Shown: in pieces, positions 4,035 to 58,803 of the stretch
Position numbering within the stretch: the first letter of the stretch is position 1
Layout: each line of letters opens with the position of its first letter
Assembly: GCA_035458505.1 (NCBI GenBank)
Contig: DATHZS010000024.1
Span: forward strand, 23,296 to 87,295
Origin: Anaerolineales bacterium
Lineage (GTDB): Bacteria > Chloroflexota > Anaerolineae > Anaerolineales > UBA11579
DNA: 64,000 nucleotides
Direction of reading: 5' to 3'
Notes under the pieces: model-generated
Seen by the model: the letters and a program-made list of their open reading frames with translations, nothing else
What the model was told of the DNA's origin: nothing
Databases searched by the model: none
Program-made: the position numbers and the translations under genes

Positions 4035-4058
4035 GGTTCTACCTCTTTCATGTCGTTT

Positions 4059-4694: not shown

Positions 4695-4714
4695 AGCTAT
4701 TATTAAATCAAATG

Positions 4715-4737
4715 CCGTGACACACATGCTGTCACGG
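4715..4737 (-). promoter_or_regulatory. Hairpin / inverted repeat about 20 nt upstream of the recX start
   Basis: Perfect 8-bp arms ccgtgaca (4715-4722) / tgtcacgg (4730-4737) with a 7-nt loop. On the minus strand it is followed by catttgatttaataat. Function unknown (attenuator, processing site or operator). Confidence 0.3.
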
Positions 4738-5031
4738 CTGGATACGATAACCAAAACTATAATCTGGTTCGATTGAATAACAGGTATTTACCTATGGCAA
4801 ACGAGACTCTTTACTGAGCTGCTGTAGCTATATTTTTTGTATTTGTTTGTCCCAGATAGTATCCCGAGTGAAATCTAGTTGCCTCTGGATGTTAGCTAAT
4901 TTGCCTTACTAAGGTTTTTAGTCAAGAAGCACTGTATGCTTCTCCTGGTAATTTCCTGAATATCTTATAATCGTATCAGTCGTGGCCGCGCTGTGGTCAA
5001 GAATGGATTGCGGCCGCTGGCTGGGAGTGGG

Positions 5032-6042
5032 CTAATCGTCTAAGGGCATGATGCCATCAGAGAGTGCTTTTTCTCGGATCGAGATCTCGATCTCCTCAGC
5101 CAATTCAGGGGTCTGGCGCAAATATTCTTTGGTGTTCTCGCGCCCTTGCCCTAATCTTATCTCGCCGTAATTGTAAAAAGAACCGCGTTTGTCAACGATC
5201 TGGAATTCTACGGCGAGGTCCAATATATCTCCATACTTGGAGATACCTTCATTATACATTATATCAAATTCTGCTGCACGAAATGGTGGAGCGACTTTGT
5301 TTTTCACAACTCGCACCCTTGTTCGGCTGCCGATGATATCGCTGCCGGCTTTGATGGATTGGATCCGGCGCACATCCAGTCGAATTGATGAATAGAATTT
5401 GAGCGCCATCCCACCAGTGGTTGTCTCCGGGTTGCCAAACATGACTCCGATTTTTTGCCGCAACTGGTTGGTGAAAATCACCGCGGTGTTGGTCTGTTTG
5501 ATCGCCCCTGAGAGCTTACGCAAGGCCTGGGACATCAGCCTGGCCTGTACGCCCATGGTGGCATCCCCCATATTGCCCTCCAATTCTGAACGCGGGACCA
5601 GGGCAGCCACAGAGTCGATTACCACGATATCTACTGCACCTGACCGGACCAGTGTTTCGGTGATTTCGAGGGCTTGTTCGCCCATATCCGGTTGAGAGAT
5701 GAGCAGATTGTCCACGTCCACCCCACAGCGTGCCGCGTAAGCAGGATCCAGGGCGTGCTCCATGTCGATGAAGGCCGCCTGGCCGCCCATTTTCTGTGCT
5801 TCGGCAACGATATGCTGGCAGATTGTTGTCTTACCGGAGGATTCCGGACCAAAAATTTCAGTGACACGGCCCCGCGGGATCCCTCCGATCCCAAGGGCTA
5901 AGTCTAACGATAATGAACCTGTAGGGATGGCAGCAACATGGAGGCTGTGGGCTTCTCCCAGCCGCATGATGGATCCATCTCCATACCGTTTGGTAATTTC
6001 CTTCAAAGCATTATCCAGTGCTTTGTGCTTTGCGTCATTCAT
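5032..6042 (-). CDS. recA: Recombinase RecA (paralog 1, short weakly acidic C-terminus)
   Basis: 336 aa. Walker [10 protein letters not shown], plus [50 protein letters not shown]. Followed by recX and rny on the same strand. Confidence 0.97.
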
Positions 6043-27420: not shown

Positions 27421-27432
27421 TCTTTTGGAGTG

Positions 27433-29121
27433 ATGATGGCTGAAAATCAGATTGTACTGCTTCCGAGAATCGATTATTACAAATGGGTCAGATCTGTTCA
27501 ACAGTACGCGCTCCATTTTGGAGTTGGCATCACCCAGGACCCTGCGAAGGTGGCTGGCTTTTCGATCGTGACGGTGGTGATTGGGAGAAACAGCTACCCC
27601 CACGAAGGAGATATTGTTGAATGGCTCAAGGTGCGCTATTCTGGGGTTAATATCGACCCGATTGTGGTGGAGTCTGCGGAGGCATTATCCAAGCTGCTCG
27701 ACACCCGGATTGAAAAAGGGCAGCAGTATGGGAAACTGGTCGGCGAAAAAACCGGACCTGATCCTCTTCCCCGGTATCCAAAAAATCGACTTTACCTGTT
27801 TTGGCCAACTGATTATCCCACTCTACTGCAGCCGTTTGGTGCAAACCCTGAGATCTACAGCCAATATGGGCTGCCTGGCCATGAAGGTGTGGATATCCGG
27901 GCTCCTCTTGGGGCGAATGTGTATGCGTGCGCAGCGGGGGAAGTGGCCTTCGTCAGCGAAGATCCAGCCGCGCCTAAATACGGAAAGCATATTCGAATTG
28001 TGCATGCAGGCGGGTACCAAACGATTTATGCTCATTTGGAGCGAATCCTGGTGAGCAAAGGCGATCGGGTCAAGCCGAGGCAGTTGATTGCCCGGGCAGA
28101 TTCCACTCGAAATGCTTCCAGCCACCATTTGCACCTAACCCTGACCAAAGATCAGGCCACCGCGAGAGGGGAGACGGATTATCCTGGGGATATCATCGAC
28201 CCAACACCATTTCTCGTCTACCCACACCAGCAACCTGATGTGCTTGAAGCAATGGGAATGAATGGCGGGGAACCAGTTCAGAGGTATCCATGGGCGCGTC
28301 CTTGTCTGGTTGGATTGGCTTCCAGGTGGGGTGGGTCGATGCAGGAAGTGGATTATTCAGTGATTGACAAGGCGCGCATTGAAGCGGTCAGGATCCATGC
28401 AAAAACGACCTCGAATACGTTGATCCGAATGCAAGAACTGTTTCCGGAAATATTTTTCCTTGCACGCATGACGATTGAAGATGGCTCCAAACCGCTCTCG
28501 CCGAGAAAATGGCTGGAAGGGATGCGGCTGGATATTGAACGATTATATAAGCACGGAGTGCGCTATTTTGAGATTCAGCAGTCTCCTAATTTGCTGCAAT
28601 TTGGGTGGCGTACTACCTGGTCTTCCGGAGAACAATTCGCTGCCTGGTGGCTGGCAGTCGCGGAGAAACTTTGGGTGGAATTTTCCGGGATCAAGTTAGG
28701 GTTCCCGGGTGTATCACCTGGGGGACAAGTCCCCGGTTTGCGGATGGATTCGACCGTTTTCCTGGATGGTGCCGATCCAGCCATGGTCAAAGCCGATTGG
28801 ATCGGGGTCAATGGCTATTGGGTGAATGAGGTTGAGCGGGTATCGAAAGACAAAGGCCGTTTTTATCAGAAAATGCGCGAACGATTTCCTGAAAAGCTGT
28901 TGTTTATCATGGAGTTTGGCAACCTGAACAGGCATACTCACCCAACGCAAAAAGGACTGGAATATGTCCGATTTTTCCAGGAACTGCGCGACACCCCAGG
29001 CTTGGGGGCCGCATTTGCTCAGGTGGTTTCTTCGGCACGGGGGTATGAGTCTTTGGCTTGGCGAAGCGAAGCGGGAGAATTATCTCAAATTGTGGAATTT
29101 GTTGGCGCGCGGCAGTTTTAG
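27433..29121 (+). CDS. Cytoplasm-predicted M23 metallopeptidase fused to a C-terminal TIM-barrel glycosidase-like (clan GH-A-like) domain
   Basis: ~562 aa. Possible starts are GTG 27430 and ATG 27433 or 27436, with GGAG at 27427-27430. M23 motifs HEGVD and SHHLHL. The C-terminal half has YFEIQQSPNL and FIMEFG, which resemble the NEP and TEFG strands of clan GH-A enzymes. No signal peptide seen. Confidence 0.8.
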   Translation: MMAENQIVLLPRIDYYKWVRSVQQYALHFGVGITQDPAKVAGFSIVTVVIGRNSYPHEGDIVEWLKVRYSGVNIDPIVVESAEALSKLLDTRIEKGQQYGKLVGEKTGPDPLPRYPKNRLYLFWPTDYPTLLQPFGANPEIYSQYGLPGHEGVDIRAPLGANVYACAAGEVAFVSEDPAAPKYGKHIRIVHAGGYQTIYAHLERILVSKGDRVKPRQLIARADSTRNASSHHLHLTLTKDQATARGETDYPGDIIDPTPFLVYPHQQPDVLEAMGMNGGEPVQRYPWARPCLVGLASRWGGSMQEVDYSVIDKARIEAVRIHAKTTSNTLIRMQELFPEIFFLARMTIEDGSKPLSPRKWLEGMRLDIERLYKHGVRYFEIQQSPNLLQFGWRTTWSSGEQFAAWWLAVAEKLWVEFSGIKLGFPGVSPGGQVPGLRMDSTVFLDGADPAMVKADWIGVNGYWVNEVERVSKDKGRFYQKMRERFPEKLLFIMEFGNLNRHTHPTQKGLEYVRFFQELRDTPGLGAAFAQVVSSARGYESLAWRSEAGELSQIVEFVGARQF

Positions 29122-32649: not shown

Positions 32650-33687
32650 CTACGGCGTTGGTGTGAGGTCGGTAAAGTCGATTGACGGGTTCACAAAGTC
32701 CTGCACATTGACATACACCATCAGCAAGAGCACCAGTCCCAGGCTGACAAGGTTGAGCATGTAGTACAAATTTAGAGGGACGCGCTTTTTGAATAAAAGT
32801 TCAGGGAGAGCGAGCAGGATTTTTCCGCCATCAAAAAGTGGGATGGGCAGCAGGTTGATCAGGCCGAGTGAAAATGAGATGGAGGCGATGAACCAGATTG
32901 TGTTGGTCCCGGCAGCAATGCTGGTTTCAGAGGCATCCATATCCTGTGCCAGTTGGAAGCCATCGAACATTCCTTTCAGTCCCACCAGACGGAAAGGAAT
33001 GCTGGTGATCTGCTGGACTTGAAAGACAAGGAAATTAACACTCTCTGCCACTGCTCCGGGGAAGTTAAGTGGAGTGAAAAGTCCCACTCCAATCGGTCCC
33101 TCATTGAGCGCATTGTATTCGGTCCGCGGGGTGATTGTGACCGTGTTTGTCTGCTCACCGCGCAGGTAAGTGAGTTCGATTGGGCCCCCATTTTTCTCGC
33201 TGATCGCGAGCTGGAGTTCATCAATACTCTCGATCTCAATTCCGTCAATTGCTGTGATTAAGTCCTCAGACAGGAGGCCGGCGGCTTCTGCGGGTGAGTC
33301 TGGATCGACTCTTGTGATCAGGACATGATCGAGTTTGTTGCCGATCTGGTAGTAGGCAAAGGATAGCAGCAGCACAGCGGCCACAAGGTTGGTGATTGAG
33401 CCAGCCAGGAGCATGAAAATTCGCTTCCAGGGAGCCGCGGCCATTAATTCGTCCGGGATTTGTTCGTCTCCTTCCCGTTCTCTTGGCCGGACAAAACCAC
33501 CAAATGGAAGCCAGTTAAGTGTGAACTCGGTTTCACCGGATCTGAATAAGGTGATGATCCGGGGAGGGAACCCAATTCCGAATTCCTGAATTGGAATCCC
33601 AACAATTTTTGCCGCGATAAAATGTCCTAATTCATGGATCAGGATCAGGAAGGCGAGGGCAAATATAAAATAAAGGGTTGTTAGCAT
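32650..33687 (-). CDS. rseP: Site-2 (RIP) zinc metalloprotease RseP
   Basis: 345 aa. HELGHF in the first TM helix, a central PDZ-like segment, and a C-terminal LINLLPIPLFDGG motif. Confidence 0.9.
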   Translation of the reverse strand: MLTTLYFIFALAFLILIHELGHFIAAKIVGIPIQEFGIGFPPRIITLFRSGETEFTLNWLPFGGFVRPREREGDEQIPDELMAAAPWKRIFMLLAGSITNLVAAVLLLSFAYYQIGNKLDHVLITRVDPDSPAEAAGLLSEDLITAIDGIEIESIDELQLAISEKNGGPIELTYLRGEQTNTVTITPRTEYNALNEGPIGVGLFTPLNFPGAVAESVNFLVFQVQQITSIPFRLVGLKGMFDGFQLAQDMDASETSIAAGTNTIWFIASISFSLGLINLLPIPLFDGGKILLALPELLFKKRVPLNLYYMLNLVSLGLVLLLMVYVNVQDFVNPSIDFTDLTPTP

Positions 33688-39361: not shown

Positions 39362-40429
39362 TCAATCGCTGTCCAGAAAGCTTTCAATGCTGGAGGGCGG
39401 CCCGGCGTTAGGTGTGAAATCGCTGAAACCCATCAGGCCGCGATAGCGGAAGTACGAGATCCTACCAGGGTGCACTTCCACGAACTGTTCGTACATATAG
39501 CCAAAATACGGGATCTGGATACGGTAATTTCCGGCTGGCAGGTCGCTGATGGCGAAGTTTTCGTTGTAATGCGGGTCTCCATTCACGGTTAAAATGGAGC
39601 CGTAGGATTTGCCACGCCATTCTTGTCCCGTATCCATGTTTGTGAGGATGACTTCCTGTTTCAGGAGCGGCTCCCCGATACCATCGGTCAGCCGGCCAAC
39701 AATCACGCCCCATCCCTGCGGCGGGGCGAGCCATAACTCCGGATTGAGCGTTTCATAAAAATTATTGGTGCCAACCCTCACCTCAAAATGCAAATGGGGA
39801 GCAGTGACCATCCCGGTACCTCCGGAGAGGGCGATCAGGTCCCCGGTTTCTACAAAGGCGCCTTTATCCACCAGGGTCTCAGAGAGGTGGGCATACAGTG
39901 TGTACAGGGGTTCATTGTTCCAGCCAAAGTCGTGTTCAATGGCGACGGCGAATCCATATGGGTCGTTTTGATTGTTATCTCCAAACAGCAGCCCTTTTCC
40001 AGACCAAATGACCTGGCCTGGTCCGGCAGCATACACCGGAGTGCCTTCACCAACCACGATGTCCACACCGGTATGGGGTGCATCAGGTGCAAAGAAGATC
40101 CCGCCGTAGCGGTAGGAAGATAGAGGCCAATTGACTTCGTCTGCTTTGACCGGTCGGACGAAATAAAAATGGTCATTCTCGCTCAATGCCCATGGTACGG
40201 GGTACAACGGTGGGCGCCAGGCTGATTTAGGATTGTTGGAGGCCTCGGGCAACGGGCTGCTCAATGGGTCGGGGAGCAGGGTGGGGGTTGACTCTGGCTC
40301 CTGGGCAGACCGGATTCCTGCCTGCGCAGGCTGGATGTTGATGCCAATAGCTGCGATGACGAGTGCGGCCACTGCGAAATAGCTCAGAATGAGGAGCAGC
40401 TGGGTACGATTTTTCATTCGAAACCTCAA
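39362..40429 (-). CDS. Membrane-anchored M23 metallopeptidase with a C-terminal carboxypeptidase-regulatory-like beta domain
   Basis: 355 aa. N-terminal anchor, HTGVDI and APHLHFEV M23 motifs, and a C-terminal GVIVGRLTD..GEPL.. beta-sandwich-like segment. The start overlaps the upstream stop (40426-40429). Confidence 0.88.
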   Translation of the reverse strand: MRFRMKNRTQLLLILSYFAVAALVIAAIGINIQPAQAGIRSAQEPESTPTLLPDPLSSPLPEASNNPKSAWRPPLYPVPWALSENDHFYFVRPVKADEVNWPLSSYRYGGIFFAPDAPHTGVDIVVGEGTPVYAAGPGQVIWSGKGLLFGDNNQNDPYGFAVAIEHDFGWNNEPLYTLYAHLSETLVDKGAFVETGDLIALSGGTGMVTAPHLHFEVRVGTNNFYETLNPELWLAPPQGWGVIVGRLTDGIGEPLLKQEVILTNMDTGQEWRGKSYGSILTVNGDPHYNENFAISDLPAGNYRIQIPYFGYMYEQFVEVHPGRISYFRYRGLMGFSDFTPNAGPPSSIESFLDSD

Positions 40430-47691: not shown

Positions 47692-48528
47692 TTATTCATC
47701 GTAGAGAACGGTCGTTTCGGTGTAAATCCGGACGCCTTTTTTGTCCAAGCGTTCCTGAATGAAGGCGCGCAGAAGATTCCTTTTTTCTTCGAGGGAAACG
47801 TCTCTGGTTAAGTATTCCAGGGGGTAATTGACGCGTAAAGCCCTGGGAGAAACCGCGAAACGCGTGATTCCGGCGGGGAGAAGTTTTTCCTCCCGGCAAA
47901 ACTGGATCACTTCTGCTACCTGGAAGGGAGGGTAGATAATCAATCCGGCCAATTGTTGATAATAACCATCAAGATAATTGATCTGATCGATCATTGTGCG
48001 GTCAAAACGGGCGTGGCTGGTATACATCTCAACGAGCCGGGTAATCACCTCTGACCGCATACGTGGGGAGTGGGTCTTCAGGGACAATAGAGGTTGCTCG
48101 GGGATTTCGAGTATCCCAAGTGTCTGAGGGTCAAAACCGGGTTGATCAATGGGAGCAAGGGAGATCTCATCCATCGCTTTGATTTTATCAAGCAACATTT
48201 CAGGGTCGATCTTCCATAAGACATGGTTCCAGGTATGCAGCTGCAAGCCTGTGGATTGAGGATCAACGATCTGGACCAGGATGTGGGAAAGCCCAAGTTC
48301 TTTCATGGACGTAACCCGGTTAGCGCCATCCAGCACCATGAAGCGATCCCCGCTCTCGCTGACAGGGATCACCAGGGGCGGGTTGTACAGGATTTGCGAC
48401 TCGCGGATTCGCTCCATGAGCGGCAGAGTGCGTTGAGGATCATGGTGTTCATGCAGGCAAATTTTTTCAGCTGGCAGGATTTCCAGATTAGGGTAGATTG
48501 GTTCTTTACTCATAAGTTTTTTTATCAA
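47692..48528 (-). CDS. ParB/sulfiredoxin-fold (ParB N-terminal domain-like) protein with an unknown C-terminal domain
   Basis: 278 aa. The N-terminal segment ..ICLHEHHDPQRTLPLMERIRESQILYNPPLVIPV..DRFMVLDGANRVTSMKELGLSHILVQIV follows the ParBc pattern (..I..he...l..L..SI...G...P..V......y.viDGhHR..A....G). GANR replaces the usual G(H/E)(H/R)R. Confidence 0.6.
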   Translation of the reverse strand: MIKKLMSKEPIYPNLEILPAEKICLHEHHDPQRTLPLMERIRESQILYNPPLVIPVSESGDRFMVLDGANRVTSMKELGLSHILVQIVDPQSTGLQLHTWNHVLWKIDPEMLLDKIKAMDEISLAPIDQPGFDPQTLGILEIPEQPLLSLKTHSPRMRSEVITRLVEMYTSHARFDRTMIDQINYLDGYYQQLAGLIIYPPFQVAEVIQFCREEKLLPAGITRFAVSPRALRVNYPLEYLTRDVSLEEKRNLLRAFIQERLDKKGVRIYTETTVLYDE

Positions 48529-48542
48529 TCACGTGCTCTGCC

Positions 48543-49682
48543 TCAGGGGCAGGCAAAATTCAGGTGCTGCTCGAAAGTTTCAGAAAAATTGTGTCTGCCG
48601 GATCCATCACAAGCAGCCCGAAAGAAGTAATAAGGGGTTTGAGCAGGGAAAGCAACCGCCTGTAGGGCAGCCAGGCTTGGGTTGGAGATCGGGGCAGGCG
48701 GCAGGCCGTTATATAAGTAAGTATTGTATGGAGAAACCACTTCTAAATCAGCATAGGTGAGTGGATTGGTCCACCATGAATTTTGCGCGGTATTATAACC
48801 CAATGCATATTGTACAGTGGGGTCTGTCTCCAGTTTCATCGCAATTTCCAGCCGGTTGAAGAATACCGAAGCGATGACTGGCATCTCTTCCTGAGTGACC
48901 GCTTCCCGCTGGATAATGGAGGCCAGGACAAGGCCCTGATGGAGGGTCAGCCCCTGGTCCGCGATACCCTGGCGCGTTTTTGGCGGGAGGCTTTGTTCGA
49001 ACTTTTCCAGCAGGAATGGGACGAGTTGTTCCGCGCGGATCGTGCGTTCAACTTCATACATTCCTGGAGGGAAGAACCCTTCCATCGAGGCACCCAATGG
49101 GATTTCCTCGGTGATCGGGAGGGATGGGTACCGCTGGTAGGCTGCCTGGATGAACTCATCGGGAGTAATCTCGACACCTGTTGTGGGCAGGCTTTCTGCA
49201 ATTTCCTCCAGCCGCCATCCAGGGAGAATGGAAATCGTTATAAAGAGCGGCGTTGAATCCAATAGTGTCTGAGCAATCTCCACAGCAGACATTCCCCTGG
49301 AAAGCTGGTAGCTGCCTGCCTGGAGCTGCGTATCCAGCCCGGAATAAACCAGGTAATCCCGGAAGAGGGATGCATCGGCGATCAGCCCACTCGCATCCAG
49401 GTTAGAGATGATCACATCAGTAGGCTGGTTGAACTCGATAGAGAACAGGACACTTTCGTCAGGGGTGCCGATTGGTTCCAGGAGGAGTTCCTGACTACTG
49501 ATCAAACGGTATGAGATCAGGAATTTCTGCCAAGTGGTCAGGTGGATAGACGGCTGTCCAAATTTTTGTTCTGCCTGGCTGGGATACTGGTTAATGAAAC
49601 TCGCACCAAAGACGACAACCAGGAGAACGATGAAAAGAGGGATCAGTAAACATGCAGAAAAATTAAACTTTTTTTGTTTCAT
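48543..49682 (-). CDS. mltG: Endolytic murein transglycosylase MltG (YceG-like)
   Basis: 379 aa. N-terminal anchor. C-terminal YNTYLYNGLPPAPISNPS..AL.AV..P signature. Confidence 0.9.
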   Translation of the reverse strand: MKQKKFNFSACLLIPLFIVLLVVVFGASFINQYPSQAEQKFGQPSIHLTTWQKFLISYRLISSQELLLEPIGTPDESVLFSIEFNQPTDVIISNLDASGLIADASLFRDYLVYSGLDTQLQAGSYQLSRGMSAVEIAQTLLDSTPLFITISILPGWRLEEIAESLPTTGVEITPDEFIQAAYQRYPSLPITEEIPLGASMEGFFPPGMYEVERTIRAEQLVPFLLEKFEQSLPPKTRQGIADQGLTLHQGLVLASIIQREAVTQEEMPVIASVFFNRLEIAMKLETDPTVQYALGYNTAQNSWWTNPLTYADLEVVSPYNTYLYNGLPPAPISNPSLAALQAVAFPAQTPYYFFRAACDGSGRHNFSETFEQHLNFACP

Positions 49683-49686
49683 GAGG

Positions 49687-50103
49687 TTAGGGAGTGGGGT
49701 TCATGTCAAGGTAAGATTGAAGGATGACCGCTGCGGCCGTGTCATCCAGGTGCCCCATCCGGCGGCTCCGGCTGGCACCGGACTTGATTTTTCCCTGGCG
49801 CGCTTGCTGGGTGCTGAAGCTTTCATCCCATAATTCAACAGGAAGGTCTGACAATGATCTGATCTCGGCTGCCAGGCGGGCGGCTTTGCGGCCGGAAAAA
49901 TTCGGTTTCCCATCCAGATCTGTGGCTTGCCCGATGACGATTTTCTCTGCTTCTTCTGCCTGGGCAAGATCCAGGATTTTTTCAGCATCTTTACGGCGTT
50001 GGGTATGGGCGATGACAGATAAAGGCCGCGCCAGGGTGCCTGTTGGATCGCTGATCGCGATGCCGATATTTTTTTCGCCGGGATCAATTCCTAAAATGCG
50101 CAA
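49687..50103 (-). CDS. ruvX: Putative pre-16S rRNA nuclease / Holliday junction resolvase-like YqgF
   Basis: 138 aa. TTG start. MRILGIDPGEKNIGIAISD signature. Confidence 0.92.
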   Translation of the reverse strand: MRILGIDPGEKNIGIAISDPTGTLARPLSVIAHTQRRKDAEKILDLAQAEEAEKIVIGQATDLDGKPNFSGRKAARLAAEIRSLSDLPVELWDESFSTQQARQGKIKSGASRSRRMGHLDDTAAAVILQSYLDMNPTP

Positions 50104-50104
50104 T

Positions 50105-51619
50105 TTAGCCGTCCTGGTGGAGGTCGATGGCCTGTATTCTGAACTCGAGCAGGGGCAAGATCGGCCACCACTCTGGGAACGTGGAGATGTCCGGTCTGGA
50201 TGACAGGTTCATCTCTGTTTGGAGGATTTTTGCAGCCTCTTCAGGTGACTGGCCCCGGATCTGTTTCACAGCCTGGGGCAGTTTTTCTACCGTGAAGATT
50301 TGTCTGGTAAGTTCAACTTCCCAGGCAACCTGTTCCTCATCGTCTATCACTGGTTTTGAGAGAGATACGATCTCGAAGGTTTGGGGTTGAGCATTGTAGC
50401 CAGGCGATAAACTCACATCCAGGATGGCATTCCCCATGGCTTGCAGTTCGTTCCACTCCAGGTACATGATCTCGTACTCGACGCGCAGGATCAGGGTCAG
50501 TGTTGAGCTGGGTTGAGGTTCTGCAGGTGAAAAATTCTCCTCCAGAATGACCACTTTCCGGGGGCTGGAATCCAGGATAACATCTTTCTCTTCCAGAGTG
50601 GAGGCGGCTTCATCCAGGGCAGTTTGCCACAAAGATGCTAGCAGGTCTTCGGAGAGGGTCTGGTAATCTTCCAAAGCCGGAGCTGGGCTCAGGCGCTGGC
50701 TGCCACCCCGGGTGGGGTCAGGGTTAGTAACAGTCAGAGTGCGCGCCAGATCTCCTTCAATGATCGCCAAAGAGTTGGCAGGGAGGTTTCCCAGAGGGCC
50801 CGGGTTGGCAGCCTCGACTGGCACATTGGTGGATGCCCCTGATTCTGGGCTTAGAGTGGCTTCACTGGTAGTGGTAAAACGGATCGACGAGGTAGAATCA
50901 GCCGTTCGGACGACAGTCCCGGTCGGAACGGTGACCTCCTGGTTGGTTAAGTTAGTAAAAATGACGATCCCGGTTGCCGGGCTATCAGGAATGCCGGTTT
51001 CGCCAGAAGACTCAATCTCCCCGCGTCCTTCCACCGTGACGGATAGGTGGTGGGCCGGAATTGCTCCTGAAAGGTTGAAAGCTGGATACTCTGGATTGGC
51101 AGAAATGCTGAGAGGGAGATTTTGCGTTTCAACTGATGGGAGGTATCTGATCTGGGCACCAGGAACAATGAAAATGACCAGGGCCAGGACAGATAGTATA
51201 CTGACGGCGAAAGCAGAAATCCGGGCAGGTTTGGATTGTGTCCAGGCAGATTCTGGAGTTCCCCTGACAAGTTCGGCCAATTGCTCGCGGGTACGCGTAT
51301 GCTCAGGCTTTTGCGGTAACCGGGAAGGGGATAGGGAGTATTCCCAAGGCACTCGCTGAGCCTGCCGAAGCGAACGGAAAACCGGAATGCCCAGTTCATA
51401 GGCAAAATCGAGAATCTGGCGTTTTTTGCAGACCAGAGCCAACTTAATATCCGCGGCCTGGCAGCGACGGTGAATCAGCTTGAGGTCTAATTTACTCTCG
51501 AGCGGGGTTCCGCGCAACGGCCAGGTGATGATTACCCGATCGGCTTGCCCCCAGTTGAGCTTGTCCAGCACCGAGTGGCGGTCGTCGAAAGATTCCAGAT
51601 GCACAATTTGAGTTTTCAC
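50105..51619 (-). CDS. Single-pass membrane protein: small cytoplasmic N-domain plus an external region resembling baseplate J / gp47-like proteins
   Basis: 504 aa. GTG start 5 nt after the alaS stop. TM helix ISAFAVSILSVLALVIFIV. The segment GIVIFTNLTNQEVTVPTGTVV..VPVEAANPGPLGNLPANSLAIIEGDL..VTNPDPTRGG resembles the Baseplate_J core, from memory. The family call is tentative. Confidence 0.5.
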   Translation of the reverse strand: MKTQIVHLESFDDRHSVLDKLNWGQADRVIITWPLRGTPLESKLDLKLIHRRCQAADIKLALVCKKRQILDFAYELGIPVFRSLRQAQRVPWEYSLSPSRLPQKPEHTRTREQLAELVRGTPESAWTQSKPARISAFAVSILSVLALVIFIVPGAQIRYLPSVETQNLPLSISANPEYPAFNLSGAIPAHHLSVTVEGRGEIESSGETGIPDSPATGIVIFTNLTNQEVTVPTGTVVRTADSTSSIRFTTTSEATLSPESGASTNVPVEAANPGPLGNLPANSLAIIEGDLARTLTVTNPDPTRGGSQRLSPAPALEDYQTLSEDLLASLWQTALDEAASTLEEKDVILDSSPRKVVILEENFSPAEPQPSSTLTLILRVEYEIMYLEWNELQAMGNAILDVSLSPGYNAQPQTFEIVSLSKPVIDDEEQVAWEVELTRQIFTVEKLPQAVKQIRGQSPEEAAKILQTEMNLSSRPDISTFPEWWPILPLLEFRIQAIDLHQDG

Positions 51620-51624
51620 GGTTC

Positions 51625-54354
51625 CTAGGCCAGATTCTCCTCAACCCAAGCGGGTACTTTTTCAAGTGCTTCCTCTAACTTCGATGCGTCTCGCCCCCCA
51701 GCCTGTGCCAAGTTGGGACGTCCTCCACCGGAGCCTCCCACAACCTCAGATACGACCTGGATTAAATCTCCTGCTTTCAGACCTTTATCCACCAGGTCAT
51801 CTGTAATCGCGGCGATCAGGGCTGGTTTTTCATCTATCACAGCAGCCAGAACAGCAACTCCGGTGGTAAATTTCTGGCGGAAGCGATCGGTCATCTCTCT
51901 GAGGGTGTTGCGGTCTGCCTCGGGCAAGATTCCAGTCAGCACCCGGACGCCCTTGATGTCCCGGGCGTTCTCCATCTGGTCCATGAAGGACTCTCCAGCC
52001 ATTTCCCTACGGAGCGAAGCGATTTCTTTTTGTGCATTGGCCAAACTTGTCAGCATACTCTCTGCTTTTTCGACCATCTGGTCAGGAGGTGTTTTGAATA
52101 AGTCGGCGAGTTGATCGATTTCCTTGAAACGCTGCTGAACGATCTGATATGCCCTGGAACCAGTCACCGCTTCTATCCGGCGGATACCAGAGGCGACGCT
52201 TCCCTCGCTGGTGATCAAAAAGGTGCCGATTTCCCCGGTGGACCCGACATGGGTTCCACCACATAATTCGTAGGAGAAGGGCTGCTCTCCTCCAATCTGG
52301 ATTGTGCGCACAATATCCCCGTATTTCTCTCCAAAGAGGGCCCTTGCACCTTCGGATTTTGCCTGATCCAGGGGTTTGTGTTCAATTTTCAGAGCAAAGT
52401 TATTGAGGATATGTCGATTAACCCCGGCTTCGATCTCTGCCAGCTGTTCTTTTGTCAGGGCTTCTGGATGAGTGAAATCGAACCGCAGGCGGTCCGGGGC
52501 AACAAGCGACCCAGCTTGCTGCGCATGGCTGCCAAGTACGCGTTCCAGTTCGGCATGCAGTAAATGAGTGGCGGTGTGGTTGCGCATAATATCCTGCCGT
52601 CGCTGGAGATCAACCAGCGCGGTGGCAGCATCGCCGACCTTTGGATTGCCGCGCACCACGGACCCGCGGTGTGCGACCATCCCGGCTGAAGGTCGTCGGG
52701 TATCCGTAACAGACACTTCCCAATTGTTTTGATGGGAAACGATAGAACCCGTGTCGGACACCTGGCCGCCAGCGGCGACATAAAAGCCCGTTTCTGGGAG
52801 GATGATCTCAACTTGATCACCGGGAGCGACTGAGTCGACTCCTTCACCATTTTTCATGATGGAGAGTACGGTTCCATCCACCTGGAGCATAGAATAAGGA
52901 TCGTACTTGACTCCGGACGTCGGCAGCTTGTCGTGCGATTGCAATTCGGTAAAGATATTCTGAAAGACTTCCGCATCCTCTCCGCCAAGTTCTCCCATTG
53001 CTTTACCTCCGCCGGAGGCAAGGCGGTGTGCTTCCATCGCATCCTGGAAGCCCTGTTCGTCCACCTTGAGATCGTTCTCCAACGCGATATCCCGGGAGAT
53101 TTCAAGCGGAAGCCCATGGGTTGCGTAGAGCTCAAAGGTGAGTTTGCCGGGAATTGTGGAGAGCCCTTTTGTTTTGGTATCCCGGATGATCGTTTCTAAT
53201 TGAGCAATCCCGCCCTCAACGGTTTTTTGGAACCGCTCTTCTTCCCGGGTCAGTTGTGAAAGGATAATCTCTCGATTTTTCTTCAACTCCGGATAAGCGT
53301 CACCATATCGATCGATCACCACCTCGGCGATATGAGACATGAAAGGATCATTCAGGTTAATCTTGGTGGCAAATCTCGCAGCCCGGCGAATGATCATGCG
53401 GGTGACATAATTGCGGCCAATGTTTCCCGGGATGACTCCATCTGCGATCAGGAAAGTGGCCGCACGGGCATGGTCGGCAACCACACGATAAGGGGTGAAA
53501 TTGTCTTCGCGTTCTTCGTCTGTCTGCCCCGAGAGCTGCTGAATCTTTTGGATCACCGGCCAGAATAGATCCGTCCGGTAATTCGAATTTTTTCCCTGAA
53601 GAACGGTGACAATGCGGTCGAAGCCCATGCCGGTATCCACATGCATGGCGGGAAGCAATTCCAGGCTGTTAGGGCCGGTGCGATTGTATTGCATGAAAAC
53701 CAGATTCCATAATTCCAGGAAACGCGGGCCATCCAGGTCTGGCCGACCATCTTGAAGGTAGGTGATCTCACCGTGATCCGGACCTAAATCAATATGGATT
53801 TCTGAATTTGGTCCGCATGGTCCTGTATTGGCCATTTCCCAAAAATTGTCTTTACGTCCAAAATAGAGAATGTGATCCGGATTCAAACCAGGTTGTTCTT
53901 TCCAATATGCCGCTGCCTCGTCATCTGTGGGAATTTCGCCTAATTCATCTTTGAAAACGGTGACATATAAGTTCTCTTTGGGTAAATTCCAGACCCCGGT
54001 CAGCAGTTCCCAGGCCCATTCGATCGCTTCTTTCTTGTAGTAATCTCCAAACGACCAGTTCCCCAACATCTCGAAGAAGGTATGGTGGGTGTCATCCAAA
54101 CCTACGTCTTCAAGGTCATTGTGCTTTCCAGCCACACGCATACATTTCTGAGAATTTACTGCCCGGTTGTAATCCCTTTTATCGGTCCCCAGAAATACAT
54201 CCTTGAACTGGACCATCCCCGAGTTGGCAAACAGCAGGGTGGCATCCCCGGCGGGAACCAGGGAAGATGAAGGGACATAGGCATGTCCTTTTTTTTCAAC
54301 GAAGAAATCGATAAATTGTTGTCTGATTTCGTTTCCGGATAAATTAACAGTCAT
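51625..54354 (-). CDS. alaS: Alanine--tRNA ligase
   Basis: 909 aa. Class II core (HHTFFEMLGNWSFGDYYK), editing-domain HxxxH (HTATHLLH) and CGGTH, and a C-terminal DHHA1-like domain. Confidence 0.97.
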   Translation of the reverse strand: MTVNLSGNEIRQQFIDFFVEKKGHAYVPSSSLVPAGDATLLFANSGMVQFKDVFLGTDKRDYNRAVNSQKCMRVAGKHNDLEDVGLDDTHHTFFEMLGNWSFGDYYKKEAIEWAWELLTGVWNLPKENLYVTVFKDELGEIPTDDEAAAYWKEQPGLNPDHILYFGRKDNFWEMANTGPCGPNSEIHIDLGPDHGEITYLQDGRPDLDGPRFLELWNLVFMQYNRTGPNSLELLPAMHVDTGMGFDRIVTVLQGKNSNYRTDLFWPVIQKIQQLSGQTDEEREDNFTPYRVVADHARAATFLIADGVIPGNIGRNYVTRMIIRRAARFATKINLNDPFMSHIAEVVIDRYGDAYPELKKNREIILSQLTREEERFQKTVEGGIAQLETIIRDTKTKGLSTIPGKLTFELYATHGLPLEISRDIALENDLKVDEQGFQDAMEAHRLASGGGKAMGELGGEDAEVFQNIFTELQSHDKLPTSGVKYDPYSMLQVDGTVLSIMKNGEGVDSVAPGDQVEIILPETGFYVAAGGQVSDTGSIVSHQNNWEVSVTDTRRPSAGMVAHRGSVVRGNPKVGDAATALVDLQRRQDIMRNHTATHLLHAELERVLGSHAQQAGSLVAPDRLRFDFTHPEALTKEQLAEIEAGVNRHILNNFALKIEHKPLDQAKSEGARALFGEKYGDIVRTIQIGGEQPFSYELCGGTHVGSTGEIGTFLITSEGSVASGIRRIEAVTGSRAYQIVQQRFKEIDQLADLFKTPPDQMVEKAESMLTSLANAQKEIASLRREMAGESFMDQMENARDIKGVRVLTGILPEADRNTLREMTDRFRQKFTTGVAVLAAVIDEKPALIAAITDDLVDKGLKAGDLIQVVSEVVGGSGGGRPNLAQAGGRDASKLEEALEKVPAWVEENLA

Positions 54355-56581: not shown

Positions 56582-58132
56582 TTGAGGCGTTACCTGTATT
56601 TCTCAGTCTTTTCGTCTGGCCTTGTCACCCTGACAGTTGAGCTGACTGCATCCAGGCTGCTTGGCAATGTGTTTGGGACGAGCAATCTGGTATGGGCGAG
56701 CATTATCGGGTTGATCCTGATCTATCTCACCGCAGGATACTTTTTAGGGGGGAAACTGGCGGATAAAAATCCAGAACCCAGAATGTTTTTTATGGTCTTG
56801 CTATGGGGTGCTTTCACGGCGGGAGTGGTCCCGGTGGTTTCCCGTCCCGTGCTAAGGGCTGCTGCCCAGGCCTTCGATGAACTCCAGATGGGCGACCTGG
56901 TGGGTTCTTTTGTGGTGGTGATGGTCTTATTCATCGTCCCAATTACCCTGCTCGGTATGGTATCGCCGTTCGCCATCCGGTTGGCGATTACCAAACCGGA
57001 AGAGGCTGGGGCGATTTCAGGAAGAATCTATGCTATTTCAACCCTGGGATCATTCATCGGGACGTTTTTGCCCGTCCTGCTGTTGATCCCATTGCTGGGA
57101 ACCACCAACACATTTGTTTCCGCCAGCGTGTACCTGATGGCAGTTGCGCTTATCGGTCTTGCCAGGAGCACGGGATGGAAAAAAGCAGCGGTCTGGCTGT
57201 GGATGCCAGTGCTGCTGGCTCTTTTCGCTGTGCTTTGGGCAAGAGGAACTTTCAAGAATACTCCCGGCCAGGTTTTTGAGAGTGAATCACCGTACAATTA
57301 TATTGAAGTCGTCCAGAAAAACGGTTTTACCATGCTGCGCCTGAATGATGGGCAGGGTGTCCATTCGATGTACCATCCCGATGAACTGGATTACCTCGGG
57401 CCGTGGAAGCAATTCCTCGCGGGGCCGTTTTACTATCCCGGTCAGCAGGTTTCGGAAGTGGAACGGATTGCCATCATTGGTCTGGCAGCAGGAACCACTG
57501 CCCGGCAGGCAACCGAGGTTTTTGGCAGCATCCCGATTGATGGGTATGAGATCGACCCTGCCATCATAGAGGTTGGGGAGCAGTATTTTGGGATGACGAT
57601 GCCAAATCTGAATGCCTATGCCAAGGATGGCCGTTGGGGCTTGTTTACCAGTGAGGAGAAATATACCCTGATCGGGGTGGACGCATACCGCCCCCCGTAT
57701 ATCCCATGGCACCTGACCACCCAGGAATTCTTCCAAATCACCAAAGAACATTTAACCGGCCATGGAACCCTGGTGATCAATGTCGGCCGTTCACCCACAG
57801 ACCGCAGCCTGATCGATGCTTTGGTGACGACTTTGAGAACTGTTTTCCCAAGCGTGCATGTGATGGATATCCCCAACTCCTTCAATTCGATGGTGTATGC
57901 CACCGTTTTACCGACGACATTCGAAGATCTTGTCAGGAACTATGCGGCAATGCGGGAAGACCCACAGGTGCACCCACTTCTGTTGTCGTCAATAGAAAGA
58001 GTTATTCTTTATACCCAGCCGTTGCCAGAACCGACGGTGGTCTTTACGGATGATCAAGCCCCGGTGGAGTGGGTCGTCAACAAGATGGTCCTGGATTTTA
58101 TATTCTCAGGTGATTTCGAGGTGCTGCAATGA
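56582..58132 (+). CDS. Fused polytopic membrane domain plus spermidine-synthase-like (SpeE-fold) methyltransferase-type domain
   Basis: 516 aa. TTG start with AGGAGAAG RBS. ~7 N-terminal TM helices. The C-terminal half has IGLAAGTTARQ (nucleotide-binding loop), GYEIDP, and IGVDAYRPPYIPWHLTTQEFF. Confidence 0.8.
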   Translation: MRRYLYFSVFSSGLVTLTVELTASRLLGNVFGTSNLVWASIIGLILIYLTAGYFLGGKLADKNPEPRMFFMVLLWGAFTAGVVPVVSRPVLRAAAQAFDELQMGDLVGSFVVVMVLFIVPITLLGMVSPFAIRLAITKPEEAGAISGRIYAISTLGSFIGTFLPVLLLIPLLGTTNTFVSASVYLMAVALIGLARSTGWKKAAVWLWMPVLLALFAVLWARGTFKNTPGQVFESESPYNYIEVVQKNGFTMLRLNDGQGVHSMYHPDELDYLGPWKQFLAGPFYYPGQQVSEVERIAIIGLAAGTTARQATEVFGSIPIDGYEIDPAIIEVGEQYFGMTMPNLNAYAKDGRWGLFTSEEKYTLIGVDAYRPPYIPWHLTTQEFFQITKEHLTGHGTLVINVGRSPTDRSLIDALVTTLRTVFPSVHVMDIPNSFNSMVYATVLPTTFEDLVRNYAAMREDPQVHPLLLSSIERVILYTQPLPEPTVVFTDDQAPVEWVVNKMVLDFIFSGDFEVLQ

Positions 58133-58803
58133 TTAAAAACCCCGCATTAATGAGGACACTTCAGGTATTGGTTTCAGTTTTAGTCCTGTTGATCTTGATC
58201 CTGACCGGTGTCCGGCTGTTGCTGACAGAAACCTTCGTCCGCTTCGAGTATCAACAGAAAAGTTTTCCGCCGGATACTTACGGCATGACCAAAGATGAGC
58301 GCCTGACCTATGCGCCAGTTGCCCTGGAATTTCTGCTGAAAGATGTGCCGCCATCGTTTTTGGGAGACCTTCGTTTTGATGATGGAGCCGTAATGTTCAA
58401 TGAGCGGGAACTCCAGCACATGGTCGACGTGCAGACGCTTACTCAGTTGTTCCTCAAAGTGTGGTATGGCAGTCTGGTGCTGTTCTTGGTTCTCGGGCTG
58501 GTGGCCTGGAGGGGGGATTGGCTGGGTGAGTTTCGGAAAATGGTTTCGACGGCAGGGCTGAGCACGATTATTGTGCTGGGAACATTGGTGCTGCTCCTGC
58601 TGCTGTCCTTCGATGTTGTGTTTGTCGGTTTCCACCGGATCTTCTTCGAGGGTGACAGCTGGCTGTTCCTGTATTCTGATACGCTGATCCGGTTGTTTCC
58701 GGAAAAATTTTGGCAGGACGCGTTTCTCCTTGTCGGTGCTTTCTCCTTCCTGGGCGGAGTCCTCTTGTGGCTTGGGTTGAGGAGAAAACAAAATCAGGAA
58801 TAA
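58129..58803 (+). CDS. TIGR01906/DUF1461-family integral membrane protein (family of lipoprotein intramolecular transacylase Lit)
   Basis: 224 aa. ATGA overlap with the upstream gene. The topology and the motifs NERELQHMVDV and FHRIFFEGDSWLF fit DUF1461, from memory. Confidence 0.65.
   Translation: MIKNPALMRTLQVLVSVLVLLILILTGVRLLLTETFVRFEYQQKSFPPDTYGMTKDERLTYAPVALEFLLKDVPPSFLGDLRFDDGAVMFNERELQHMVDVQTLTQLFLKVWYGSLVLFLVLGLVAWRGDWLGEFRKMVSTAGLSTIIVLGTLVLLLLLSFDVVFVGFHRIFFEGDSWLFLYSDTLIRLFPEKFWQDAFLLVGAFSFLGGVLLWLGLRRKQNQE

Follow-up and report, generated by a model that had tools for sequence, protein, structure and literature searches.

Gene X, at positions 50105..51619 on the (-) strand of the window (the whole 64,000-nt stretch of DNA analyzed here), encodes a bitopic membrane protein of 504 aa whose ectodomain is homologous to phage baseplate J/gp47 wedge proteins. 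The gene has a stable place in the alaS-ruvX-mltG cluster across much of Chloroflexota. It is very likely that X is an exapted wedge module of a contractile tail (gpJ/gp47/gp6/Tri2 type), while the complete explanation that we propose, in which this module connects a partner in the cytoplasm with the envelope, MltG being a possible target, is given a probability of roughly 0.5.

The open reading frame listing and the junction sequences define X as a gene with a GTG start and a TAA stop, and the start is supported by the MKTQI N-terminus, which is kept in 37 of 38 aligned homologues. Directly upstream lies alaS (alanyl-tRNA synthetase, 909 aa; 51625..54354, (-) strand) and directly downstream ruvX/yqgF (138 aa; 49687..50103, (-) strand), with mltG (48543..49682, (-) strand) located 4 nt past ruvX and encoding a YceG-like endolytic transglycosylase of 379 aa with an N-terminal TM helix; alaS, ruvX (YqgF) and mltG (YceG) are thus adjacent and co-oriented in the window. 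The Pfam scan identified AlaRS by PF01411 (620.8 bits) together with tRNA_SAD and DHHA1, RuvX was identified by PF03652 (125.5 bits) and TIGR00250 (86.4 bits), and MltG by PF02618 (240.2 bits) and TIGR00247 (182.7 bits). An earlier note on this DNA, made from the sequence by eye, had placed X 5 nt after alaS and 1 nt before ruvX, and the junctions confirm it: 5 nt (gaacc) separate the TAG stop of alaS from the GTG of X, and 1 nt lies between the TAA of X and the TTG start of ruvX. Translational coupling between X and ruvX is likely, and X is, by prediction, co-transcribed with alaS and ruvX-mltG. Scans for promoters and terminators among the four genes returned nothing convincing, a result of limited weight, as the gaps within the cluster are just 1-5 nt. 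Moreover, the GC content of X is similar to that of the neighboring genes, no RNA family was found in the window with Rfam, and the search for tRNA genes found none.

The likeness of the external region to phage baseplate J/gp47 proteins, which the earlier note had pointed out, was verified by Pfam, PHROG_6, PDB, hhalign and Foldseek. Pfam PF04865 (Baseplate_J) matched X at aa 213-306 (50702-50983) with E=3.6e-9 and 36.7 bits, above the gathering score of 21.1, and matched 36 of the 38 family members at E<=1; the match in X covers profile positions 21-109 of 255 only, so that it does not take in the whole model. PHROG_6 (baseplate wedge subunit) was found at E=2.1e-14, and the PDB sequence search retrieved 9g8s_C, named 'Baseplate J family protein', at E=3.5e-5, together with 9euf_C and 8v3w_E. 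Profile-profile alignment widens the homology beyond the Pfam core, reaching neither end of J: hhalign paired X aa 204-410 with residues 80-263 (of 393) of phage J proteins at 98.7% probability and E=4e-16, over 182 aligned columns. This part of X (50390..51010, (-) strand) contains the beta-barrel core, a long helix and the first alpha/beta domain, and its homologues are the wedge proteins P2 gpJ, Mu gp47 (9ki1), phiCD508 gp65 (9g8s/9gb2), phi812 ORF62 (9euf) and diffocin CD1371 (8v3w), as well as a J-like protein of Bacillus phage Sam112.

Foldseek with the AlphaFold2 model of X (mean pLDDT 88.2), which the earlier note had suggested as a check alongside PF04865, likewise returned wedge proteins, with E values down to 1e-7 in the PDB and 2e-9 in BFVD. 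Baseplate wedge proteins account for 10 of the 13 PDB matches at E<=1e-3, and of the 46 matches in BFVD almost all that carry a name are J or wedge proteins of baseplates. The core alignments extend over ~100 residues with an RMSD of 2.3-3.3 Å and a probability of 1.00; TM-scores of the full-length alignments are low (0.17-0.26), as a result of extra domains and a different domain arrangement. If the Baseplate_J similarity were a chance or low-complexity match, and X an unrelated membrane protein, both the partial coverage of the Pfam profile and these low global scores could be accounted for. However, independent methods agree (Pfam, PHROG, hhalign and the Foldseek cores), and an invariant motif, G..F.N...G..GN...N....GG, is common to X and J proteins, which leaves that explanation with a negligible likelihood.

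More than 200 full-length homologues of X were available to define its architecture. On the evidence of conservation, the domain model and Foldseek, aa 1-95 (51335..51619, (-) strand) form a cytoplasmic beta-alpha-beta-alpha-beta-alpha domain, followed by a linker at aa 96-129 (51233..51334, (-) strand) that is poorly conserved (majority-residue frequency of 0.32), modeled at pLDDT 46-67, and basic-rich in most homologues. The N-domain had been described before as cytoplasmic and ~110 aa long; it is indeed cytoplasmic and folded, but its extent has to be revised to 95 folded residues plus the linker. The sole TM helix, at aa 130-152 (51164..51232, (-) strand), has its hydropathy maximum of 2.88 at aa 134-152 and is directly followed by a conserved P153-x-A155 motif. 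Exactly one hydrophobic segment was observed in 37 of 38 homologues, in agreement with the single helix noticed earlier. Within 30 aa of this helix, the family average of K+R is 5.9 on the N-side versus 1.8 on the C-side, and on the basis of this excess the helix is assigned an N-in/C-out topology, which, under the positive-inside rule, indicates that the J-like part of X lies outside the cell. The K+R counts thereby support the external location that the earlier note had given to this region, whereas its size is ~350 aa and not ~330 aa.

The ectodomain begins with a juxtamembrane beta-strand segment at aa 153-203 (51011..51163, (-) strand), seen in the secondary structure of the model, for which no phage-J counterpart was detected by hhalign and which takes the place of the N-terminal ~80 aa of J. 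At the other end, beyond the J-homologous part, aa 411-504 (50108..50389, (-) strand) carry a P-x-W-W-P...P...R motif, conserved in the alignment, in which W484, W485, P486 and P489 are invariant. No sequence-level match to J proteins was found for this C-terminal part, the hhalign alignment ending at aa 410, and its ~95 aa have no sequence match to the J dimerization domain, which in wedge proteins connects adjacent wedges into a ring; it may nevertheless be included in some of the Foldseek alignments, which run over 330-377 columns against J proteins 347-429 aa long.

X is not a canonical wedge protein. Its alignments begin at residue ~80 of J proteins and residue 81 of CD1371, and the helical N-terminal core-bundle segment of wedge proteins has no counterpart in X, where the TM helix and beta strands are found instead. 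In diffocin CD1371, residues 1-76 are a well-ordered N-terminal part, within regions that, together with the gpI/gp7/Tri1 partner, make up the core bundle; the N-terminal regions also bind the sheath initiator (PMC10996793). Furthermore, wedge proteins are soluble and assemble in the cytoplasm, whereas X is membrane-anchored with its J-like part predicted to be outside, carries an unrelated cytoplasmic domain, and is encoded in a housekeeping operon. Canonical phage J genes have gp25/W-like and gpI-like genes on either side and are encoded together with hub/spike, tube and sheath genes; the neighbors of X, in the window and in its relatives, are alaS, ruvX, mltG and other housekeeping genes, and no sheath, tube, hub, gp25-like or gpI-like gene was found among the window genes scanned (about 24-62 kb) or at about 25 related loci for which genes had been called. 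In addition, no relative of X was found in IMG/VR viral contigs with the patterns used, and the repeat search revealed neither flanking repeats nor an att-like or mobile-element signature.

These observations bear on whether X is a remnant, or a working part, of a prophage tail, tailocin or contractile injection system placed beside alaS. Such an origin would fit the Pfam and PHROG matches, which are to baseplate wedge families, and the name "baseplate J/gp47 family protein" already in use at NCBI for members of the family. Nevertheless, it is effectively refuted, and extremely improbable, given the lack of tail genes over the window part and the related loci scanned, the TM anchor with its cytoplasmic domain, the missing J N-terminal segment, the lack of an X relative among the viral contigs searched with those patterns, and the thousands of full-length, constrained members that occupy the same chromosomal site. 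The earlier note had spoken of a domesticated phage-tail fold, and 'domesticated' is a fair term for X, because the protein is membrane-anchored, lacks the J N-terminal segment, has no tail-gene neighbors in the scanned part, and was not found in viral contigs. From the distribution of the family, we infer that the transfer took place from phage to cell.

Clustering at 50% identity gives the X family 1,635 clusters with E<=1e-30. The best 150 are all full-length, and the architecture of X is retained down to ~21% identity. A distant group of ~600-aa proteins, with Limnocylindrales-labeled closest relatives, shows end-to-end homology to X (hhalign 100%, E=1e-63). The taxon labels seen (Anaerolineae, and Limnocylindria-, Caldilineaceae- and Dehalococcoidia-labeled) all belong to Chloroflexota, with the exception of low-GC lineages without a phylum label; for three of these loci (L107-L109), composition and a short AlaRS hint at candidate CPR/Patescibacteria. 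An actinobacterial origin of the high-GC P0300 clade (mltG-pepP-efp order) was rejected, as its NCBI relatives are Candidatus Limnocylindrales (Chloroflexota). The contig scan, carried out with search patterns drawn from an alignment of 10 sequences, yielded 14 GTDB loci, a number that under-samples the taxonomic range, since the patterns are specific to the subclade of the window. No paper on the X family was found in the literature.

Conservation of synteny across Chloroflexota, which the earlier note had named as a test, was borne out. Of 20 loci sampled by X itself, 19 have X directly upstream of ruvX, as do 51 of the 73 loci chosen by RuvX, where the arrangement extends down to ~21% identity, and 35 of the 38 loci with RuvX at least 50% identical; one fairly close relative (L030) has no X at the cluster site. 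X occupies this position at a Dehalococcoidia-labeled locus and at Limnocylindria-type loci too, two loci (L110 and L111) have X and ruvX overlapping by 4 nt, and at another (L006) X is found beside alaS, apart from ruvX-mltG. In nine loci without X, alaS abuts ruvX directly, and where the downstream sequence suffices, mltG follows ruvX in loci without X as well (e.g., L030 and L077), ruvX and mltG staying together with or without X. X entered the cluster between alaS and ruvX-mltG, probably at an early stage of the phylum's history. It was also observed that X evolves faster than its neighbors: at locus L018, for example, it is 34% identical, versus 54-56% for AlaRS, RuvX and MltG.

Within X, the best-conserved portion is the cytoplasmic N-domain, a point that the earlier note had missed: among 72 sequences, conservation reaches at least 97% at D12, P34, R51 and A73, and the domain modeled alone reaches a pLDDT of 90. 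The domain has no Pfam, NCBIfam or PDB sequence match, and a PDB sequence search with its profile gave noise only; for X as a whole there is no NCBIfam model, and the Pfam scan of 38 members detected no consistent second domain, with Pfam STAS in none of the 38. Foldseek returned weak matches of the N-domain to STAS, CheY or ribokinase-like folds, with STAS domains on top (best E=7.8e-3, probability of 0.95-1.00, TMq of 0.53-0.60) and no match at or below E=1e-3. The predicted fold is thus weakly STAS-like, and at fold level only: a four-stranded beta-alpha fold similar to that of SpoIIAA, RsbS/RsbR and the C-terminal domains of SulP proteins (query-normalized TM-scores as above), but no partner-switching kinase or phosphatase is encoded near X. 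A STAS-domain label was not adopted, as the Foldseek matches were weak only.

A strongly conserved cytoplasmic domain would be expected to suit a protein that partners RuvX (or AlaRS), with the N-domain tethering or regulating at the membrane the RuvX/YqgF nuclease, which takes part in the maturation of 16S rRNA, and with the ectodomain serving as a sensor or anchor. The linkage between X and ruvX is also the tightest in the cluster, considering the 1-nt gap, the 4-nt overlaps and the frequency with which the two genes adjoin. However, a family-wide conserved ectodomain of ~350 aa is hard to square with a mere anchor, many relatives have RuvX without X, L006 has X without an adjoining ruvX, and the dedicated cytoplasmic neighbor, where there is one, is an FtsA-like protein. 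We therefore regard a RuvX-directed role as improbable.

The gene for this FtsA-like actin-fold protein lies directly upstream of X in deep-branching members of the family (L086, L104 and L107-L111); it is newly described here, the earlier note having overlooked it. The copies of L104, L107 and L109 are 46-48% mutually identical, and the loci span 38% to 72% GC. The best matches of the encoded protein are to FtsA (TIGR01174 with 98-125 bits; PDB FtsA 7q6f at 5e-14), with weaker ones to PilM (PilM_2 with 21-32 bits; TIGR01175 with 29-49 bits). No FtsA-like gene was found at the X site in the window or in any Anaerolineales-type locus, so that this partner is not universal in cis. The presence of the FtsA-like neighbor points to a connection with the cytoskeleton or divisome at least as much as to one with MltG.

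The weak PilM matches raise a different prospect, in which X and the FtsA-like protein would form a PilM-PilN-like platform for a surface filament, for a pilus or secretion system, or for a junction between cells of filamentous Chloroflexota, any peptidoglycan link being incidental. A pilin-like N_methyl gene lies near the L109 cluster, and canonical J-like proteins are themselves fibre-carrying platforms. Yet the partner is matched best by FtsA, the pilin-like neighbor was seen once only, and PilB, PilC and PilO genes were found in none of the related loci with called genes, for which reasons we attach a low probability to such a platform.

A role of X as a surface protein in phage interactions, be it as receptor mimic, adsorption block or decoy, would draw on the phage-derived ectodomain and on the faster evolution of X relative to its neighbors, but is quite improbable. 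PADLOC gave no match, X has kept one position within a housekeeping operon across deep divergence, unlike defense islands, it is the cytoplasmic part that is best conserved, and baseplates assemble in the cytoplasm, on the opposite side of the membrane from the ectodomain.

X probably serves in the cell envelope, and in our preferred reading it would act as a transmembrane adaptor. In X, the place of the N-terminal ~80 residues of J is taken by the TM helix, the short beta segment and the cytoplasmic alpha/beta domain; the N-domain would engage a cytoplasmic partner, in deep-branching lineages most likely the FtsA-like actin-fold protein encoded upstream, and copies of the J-like ectodomain would associate with one another on the membrane's outer face, where they would dock or position a peptidoglycan enzyme; the most plausible candidate is MltG, the lytic transglycosylase encoded with X. 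The logic would be akin to that of the MreB-RodZ, FtsA-FtsN or PilM-PilN pairs. In RodZ (which binds MreB), FtsN (which binds FtsA) and PilN (which binds PilM), an N-terminal element in the cytoplasm is joined through a single TM helix to a domain outside it, and these proteins are encoded beside, or act together with, an actin-fold ATPase and cell-wall enzymes. X has the same topology and, in deep-branching relatives, an adjoining FtsA-like gene, but it has no sequence or fold relationship with these proteins, its N-domain is alpha/beta rather than an HTH or a short peptide, and the window has no FtsA-like gene.

Another parallel is the diffocin triplex with its hub-hydrolase (CD1371/CD1372 with CD1368), where a J-like protein is also paired with a lytic transglycosylase: the J-like Tri2 holds the lytic-transglycosylase domain via its wing and dimerization domains and releases it on conformational change (PMC10996793). 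X is likewise a J-like protein, and it is co-encoded with MltG. This parallel is loose, since the diffocin hydrolase has no homology to MltG (YceG fold), the CD1368 transglycosylase belonging to a different family. The diffocin contact also uses the core bundle, which X lacks, and the parallel is an analogy only. The evidence for the function of X consists of synteny and analogy, the putative links to MltG, which the earlier note had tied to peptidoglycan strand termination, and to the FtsA-like protein being instances of guilt by association. Because ruvX and mltG stay together regardless of X, the location of X next to mltG may be a by-product of its insertion beside ruvX. The adaptor/MltG mechanism is accordingly put forward tentatively, as possible rather than probable. 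A broader version, in which X and the FtsA-like protein would be the core of an unrecognized cytoskeleton-to-cell-wall module in Chloroflexota and some low-GC lineages, and in which the exapted wedge would serve a divisome- or elongasome-type adaptor as its self-assembling extracellular arm, docking or gating MltG in much the way that tailocin wedges hold their wall hydrolase and let it go, appears doubtful.

Cells reuse whole phage tails as machines, as in the T6SS, tailocins and eCIS, and the T6SS TssF and eCIS Afp11/PVC11 proteins, relatives of gp6/J, are phage-wedge-derived proteins used by cells. These are kept in a complete contractile machine with their TssG/Afp12 partner, whereas X, as described here, is an orphan wedge module on a membrane anchor: a single wedge protein out of the machine that lacks the pre-core segment, is fused to a membrane anchor and to a cytoplasmic domain, and has apparently kept its place in a core housekeeping operon through much of the phylum's history. 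One practical consequence is that, under the label "baseplate J/gp47 family protein", finders of prophages and contractile injection systems would score this housekeeping gene as a sign of phage in Chloroflexota genomes. The cell biology of this phylum is poorly known, and if X acts with MltG, with the FtsA-like protein or with both, it would offer a handle on wall growth and division in Chloroflexota. If true, the explanation proposed here would make X a clear case of a viral structural protein turned into a component of the cellular envelope.

The gene under study, hereafter X, is a 504-aa open reading frame on the minus strand of the window (50105-51619) with a GTG start, and its neighbours were verified with Pfam and NCBIfam as AlaRS, RuvX and MltG. 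The junction sequences agree with the spacing described in the earlier note, as 5 nt separate the alaS stop codon from the GTG of X and a single nucleotide separates its TAA from the TTG start of ruvX. Downstream, 4 nt lie between the end of ruvX and the start of mltG, and 14 nt between the end of mltG and a 278-aa SbnI/ParB-like gene. A promoter and terminator scan between alaS, X, ruvX and mltG returned nothing convincing and, as the gaps are too short to hold one, X is very likely co-transcribed with these genes. The GTG start is backed by the N-terminus MKTQI, conserved in 37 of 38 aligned homologues. The GC content of X resembles that of its neighbours, and a repeat search of the window found no repeats flanking it.

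An AlphaFold2 model derived from 38 homologues (mean pLDDT 88.2) supports the layout proposed earlier, namely an N-terminal domain, a single transmembrane helix and an external region, with slightly shifted boundaries. Residues 1-95 form a compact beta-alpha-beta-alpha-beta-alpha cytoplasmic domain, followed by a poorly conserved, low-confidence linker (aa 96-129), which is Arg/Lys-rich in most homologues, by the sole strongly hydrophobic segment (aa 130-152, the transmembrane helix), and by a well-predicted beta-rich and alpha/beta ectodomain (aa 153-504), beginning with a juxtamembrane beta segment (aa 153-203). X is thus bitopic, and its N-in/C-out topology follows from the family-wide count of Lys and Arg beside the helix (5.9 on the N-side versus 1.8 on the C-side). 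The cytoplasmic domain is the best-conserved part (majority-residue frequency 0.64, versus 0.58 in the J-like core and 0.49 in the C-terminal half). Among 72 sequences, residues D12, P34, R51 and A73 of this domain are at least 97% conserved, as are G217, N223, G274, N278, N299, G306 and D318 of the ectodomain, the latter being mostly those common with phage J proteins. Modelled by itself, the cytoplasmic domain was predicted confidently (pLDDT 90, pTM 0.81), and its closest structures were STAS domains (stressosome, RsfB, SulP STAS and SpoIIAA), with query-normalised TM-scores of 0.53-0.60 and none at E<=1e-3. Sequence searches with this domain (Pfam scan of 38 members, PDB profile search) gave no match, and the model would at most indicate an alpha/beta domain of STAS-like fold.

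The resemblance to baseplate J/gp47 proteins, previously suggested from the sequence, is real and partial, and both Pfam and Foldseek on the AlphaFold model matched Baseplate_J or wedge proteins. Pfam PF04865 scored 36.7 bits against aa 213-306 (gathering score 21.1), spanning just profile positions 21-109 of 255, and matched 36 of 38 family members, while PHROG_6 ("baseplate wedge subunit") matched at 2.1e-14. Sequence searches of the PDB matched phiCD508 (9g8s_C), phage 812 (9euf_C) and diffocin (CD1371, 8v3w_E), in each case the J-like "triplex" protein, and tblastn against phage genomes picked up proteins annotated as J-like baseplate components from phages of Bacillus and Aeribacillus and from haloarchaeal viruses. 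In hhalign, the X profile aligned with three phage or viral J proteins at 98.7% probability (E=4e-16), with X 204-410 against J 80-263 of 393, so that homology runs from the beta-barrel core through the long helix and includes the alpha/beta domain after it. Wedge proteins made up 10 of the 13 Foldseek PDB matches at E<=1e-3, from A-1(L), phi812, phiCD508, diffocin, Pa193 and Mu (gp47), with T4 gp6 weak and lower in the list; BFVD gave 46 matches at this threshold, the named ones nearly all "Baseplate J-like" or wedge. A chance match is effectively excluded. Superposition of the core alone covered about 100 residues at 2.3-3.3 A, and longer alignments (330-377 columns) had high RMSD, which suggests that the further modelled domains may correspond in a different arrangement.

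Nevertheless, X falls outside the canonical wedge proteins. All alignments start just past the N-terminal segment of J proteins (CD1371 residue 81, J residue ~80), in place of which X carries the transmembrane helix and the juxtamembrane beta segment; in diffocin, residues 1-76 of CD1371 are the N-terminal, well-ordered part (PMC10996793). Phage J genes neighbour gp25/W-like, gpI-like, hub, spike and fibre genes, unlike X. The window genes scanned (~24-62 kb) are ordinary chromosomal ones, among them MscS, Ogt, Lit, an FHA protein, phosphoglycerate mutase, ABC transporters, RecA, RseP, M23 peptidases and an SLT transglycosylase, and a prophage remnant is effectively excluded. With the patterns used, no relative of X was found in IMG/VR viral contigs. 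A role in phage interaction, to which the baseplate similarity might point, is improbable. The window contains several further envelope genes, which encode an 803-aa TPR-SLT lytic transglycosylase, a pair of M23 peptidases and an M50 protease of RseP type that carries a PDZ domain (24141-26552, minus; 27430-29121, plus; 32650-33687, minus; 39362-40429, minus), and cell-wall functions are generally frequent in the region.

Synteny was evaluated in two samples of loci. Where loci were sampled by X itself (identities 34-66%), it lay directly upstream of ruvX in 19 of 20 (18 distinct), with mltG next wherever the recovered sequence sufficed and alaS upstream in most; alaS is inverted away in L002/L003 with X-ruvX-mltG still joined, L004 has X-ruvX-mltG without alaS, and L006 has alaS-X without ruvX-mltG. 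To avoid ascertainment bias, 80 metagenomic loci were then sampled by RuvX and searched with the X profile. X was directly upstream of ruvX in 51 of the 73 with enough upstream sequence: 35/38 where RuvX shared at least 50% identity with that of the window, 10/16 at 45-49% and 6/19 at 38-44%. Nine loci lacking X had alaS directly against ruvX, the canonical arrangement. Such a pattern would be expected if X had been inserted into alaS-ruvX-mltG in a particular lineage and kept from then on. In L030 (1437 bp), a fairly close relative (RuvX 55% identical), alaS ends at 436 and ruvX (440-868) directly abuts it, so at least one lineage close to that of the window has lost X or relocated it. A RuvX-related role for X, which its position beside ruvX would accommodate, is unlikely.

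Other genes accompany the cluster. The SbnI/SerK/ParB-like protein after mltG (47692-48528, minus; NF033589 at 93 bits, far under cut-off) and a 135-aa protein weakly matching DUF3244 (PF11589; 47080-47487, minus) are kept as a pair in L001, L008-L011, L014 and L020; L007 has sbnI alone at its truncated end, and in L002/L003 the pair is on the strand opposite to X and upstream of it. A 516-aa open reading frame (56582-58132, plus), with no Pfam match at 1e-5, shares 4 nt with the start of the gene for Lit, the lipoprotein intramolecular transacylase (58129-58803, plus); in relatives the same pair, called Spermine_synth (mostly weak) and Lit, lies near alaS in L001, L002/L003, L005 and L006.

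Searched with a profile, 1.84 billion representative proteins gave 1,635 clusters (50% identity) at E<=1e-30, the best 150 of which are all full-length (~500 aa). Named members come from Anaerolineales, Anaerolineae or Chloroflexota MAGs and carry the NCBI name "baseplate J/gp47 family protein" (e.g., HSG25148.1). Seeding with the divergent member from L086 added Caldilineaceae-labelled and Dehalococcoidia-labelled proteins and a 540-620-aa group, whose profile found at least 2,021 proteins, the named ones being Candidatus Limnocylindrales. Homology between this group and the window's family extends over the whole length and takes in the cytoplasmic domain (hhalign 100%, E=1.2e-63), and the architecture is retained to ~21% identity. 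X occupies the same slot in the Limnocylindria-type L104, L110 and L111, in L105 and, as a candidate, in the Dehalococcoidia-labelled L106. The 600-aa protein of L106 (P0304, 6001-7803, between alaS and ruvX-mltG) has a low-complexity N-terminal extension of ~190 aa, matches the L086 seed weakly (41 bits), lacks a Pfam Baseplate_J match, and may be a highly diverged X. In the MAG contigs of L104 (1861-4658) and L105 (3108-5845), alaS falls into two or three open reading frames, likely from assembly frameshift errors rather than as real pseudogenes.

In deep branches X has a further neighbour. L104, L110 and L111 share the order alaS, a 420-aa actin-fold gene (4694-5956, 4734-5996 and 4639-5901, respectively), X, ruvX, mltG, M24 peptidase and efp, and several of these genes overlap by 4 nt. 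The same gene precedes X in the low-GC loci (38-47% GC) L107/L108 and L109 (L107:4611-5864, L109:4733-5998), and L086 has a more divergent copy (1034-2389) between its alaS and X. The copies of L104, L107 and L109 share 46-48% identity, though their loci span 38%-72% GC. FtsA is the best match (TIGR01174 at 98-125 bits, under the equivalog cut-off of 175.85; PDB 7q6f at 5e-14), no Pfam match to SHS2_FTSA was reported, and matches to MreB, PilM and EutJ were weaker; that X is part of a PilM/PilN-like platform is accordingly a doubtful reading of this actin-fold neighbour. The FtsA-like gene is absent at this site from the window and all Anaerolineales-type loci, and the cytoplasmic domain of X is conserved both with and without it. 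In L107 (38% GC), a 640-aa open reading frame with no Pfam match (2577-4499) separates the FtsA-like gene from a short alaS (627 aa, no DHHA1 domain).

X is therefore an exapted wedge module, devoid of the J N-terminal segment and fixed in a housekeeping operon, which upholds the earlier interpretation of a domesticated phage-tail fold; the proposed link to MltG is a matter of inference. It is also strongly conserved and, in deep branches, has an FtsA-like neighbour. X is probably a transmembrane adaptor, following a logic akin to that of MreB-RodZ, FtsA-FtsN and PilM-PilN. On the inner side, the cytoplasmic domain would bind a partner protein, FtsA-like where encoded in cis, and the ectodomain may still be able, as in a wedge, to associate laterally with itself and to hold a further protein, for which MltG is the most plausible candidate. 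As ruvX and mltG are joined with or without X, its closeness to mltG could be incidental. Diffocin offers a published precedent for a J-like protein holding another: the wing and dimerisation domains of its Tri2 enclose the lytic-transglycosylase and endopeptidase domains of the hub-hydrolase, which are let go when the wedge changes conformation, and C-terminal dimerisation domains connect adjacent wedges into an iris ring (PMC10996793).

At the domain level, X is a Baseplate_J superfamily member, already so named by automatic annotation; no paper describing the family was found among open-access papers and bioRxiv. What is new is an orphan wedge module that is anchored in the membrane, lies outside the cytoplasm, is joined to a conserved cytoplasmic domain and sits within alaS-ruvX-mltG in several groups that carry the labels of Chloroflexota classes. 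The structural and evolutionary side of this finding is firm and somewhat unexpected, but the function is inferred. Prophage or contractile injection system finders relying on Baseplate_J markers would, in Chloroflexota, probably take this housekeeping gene for a sign of phage, and the FtsA-like link turns the cell-biology hypothesis on X into a concrete, testable one.
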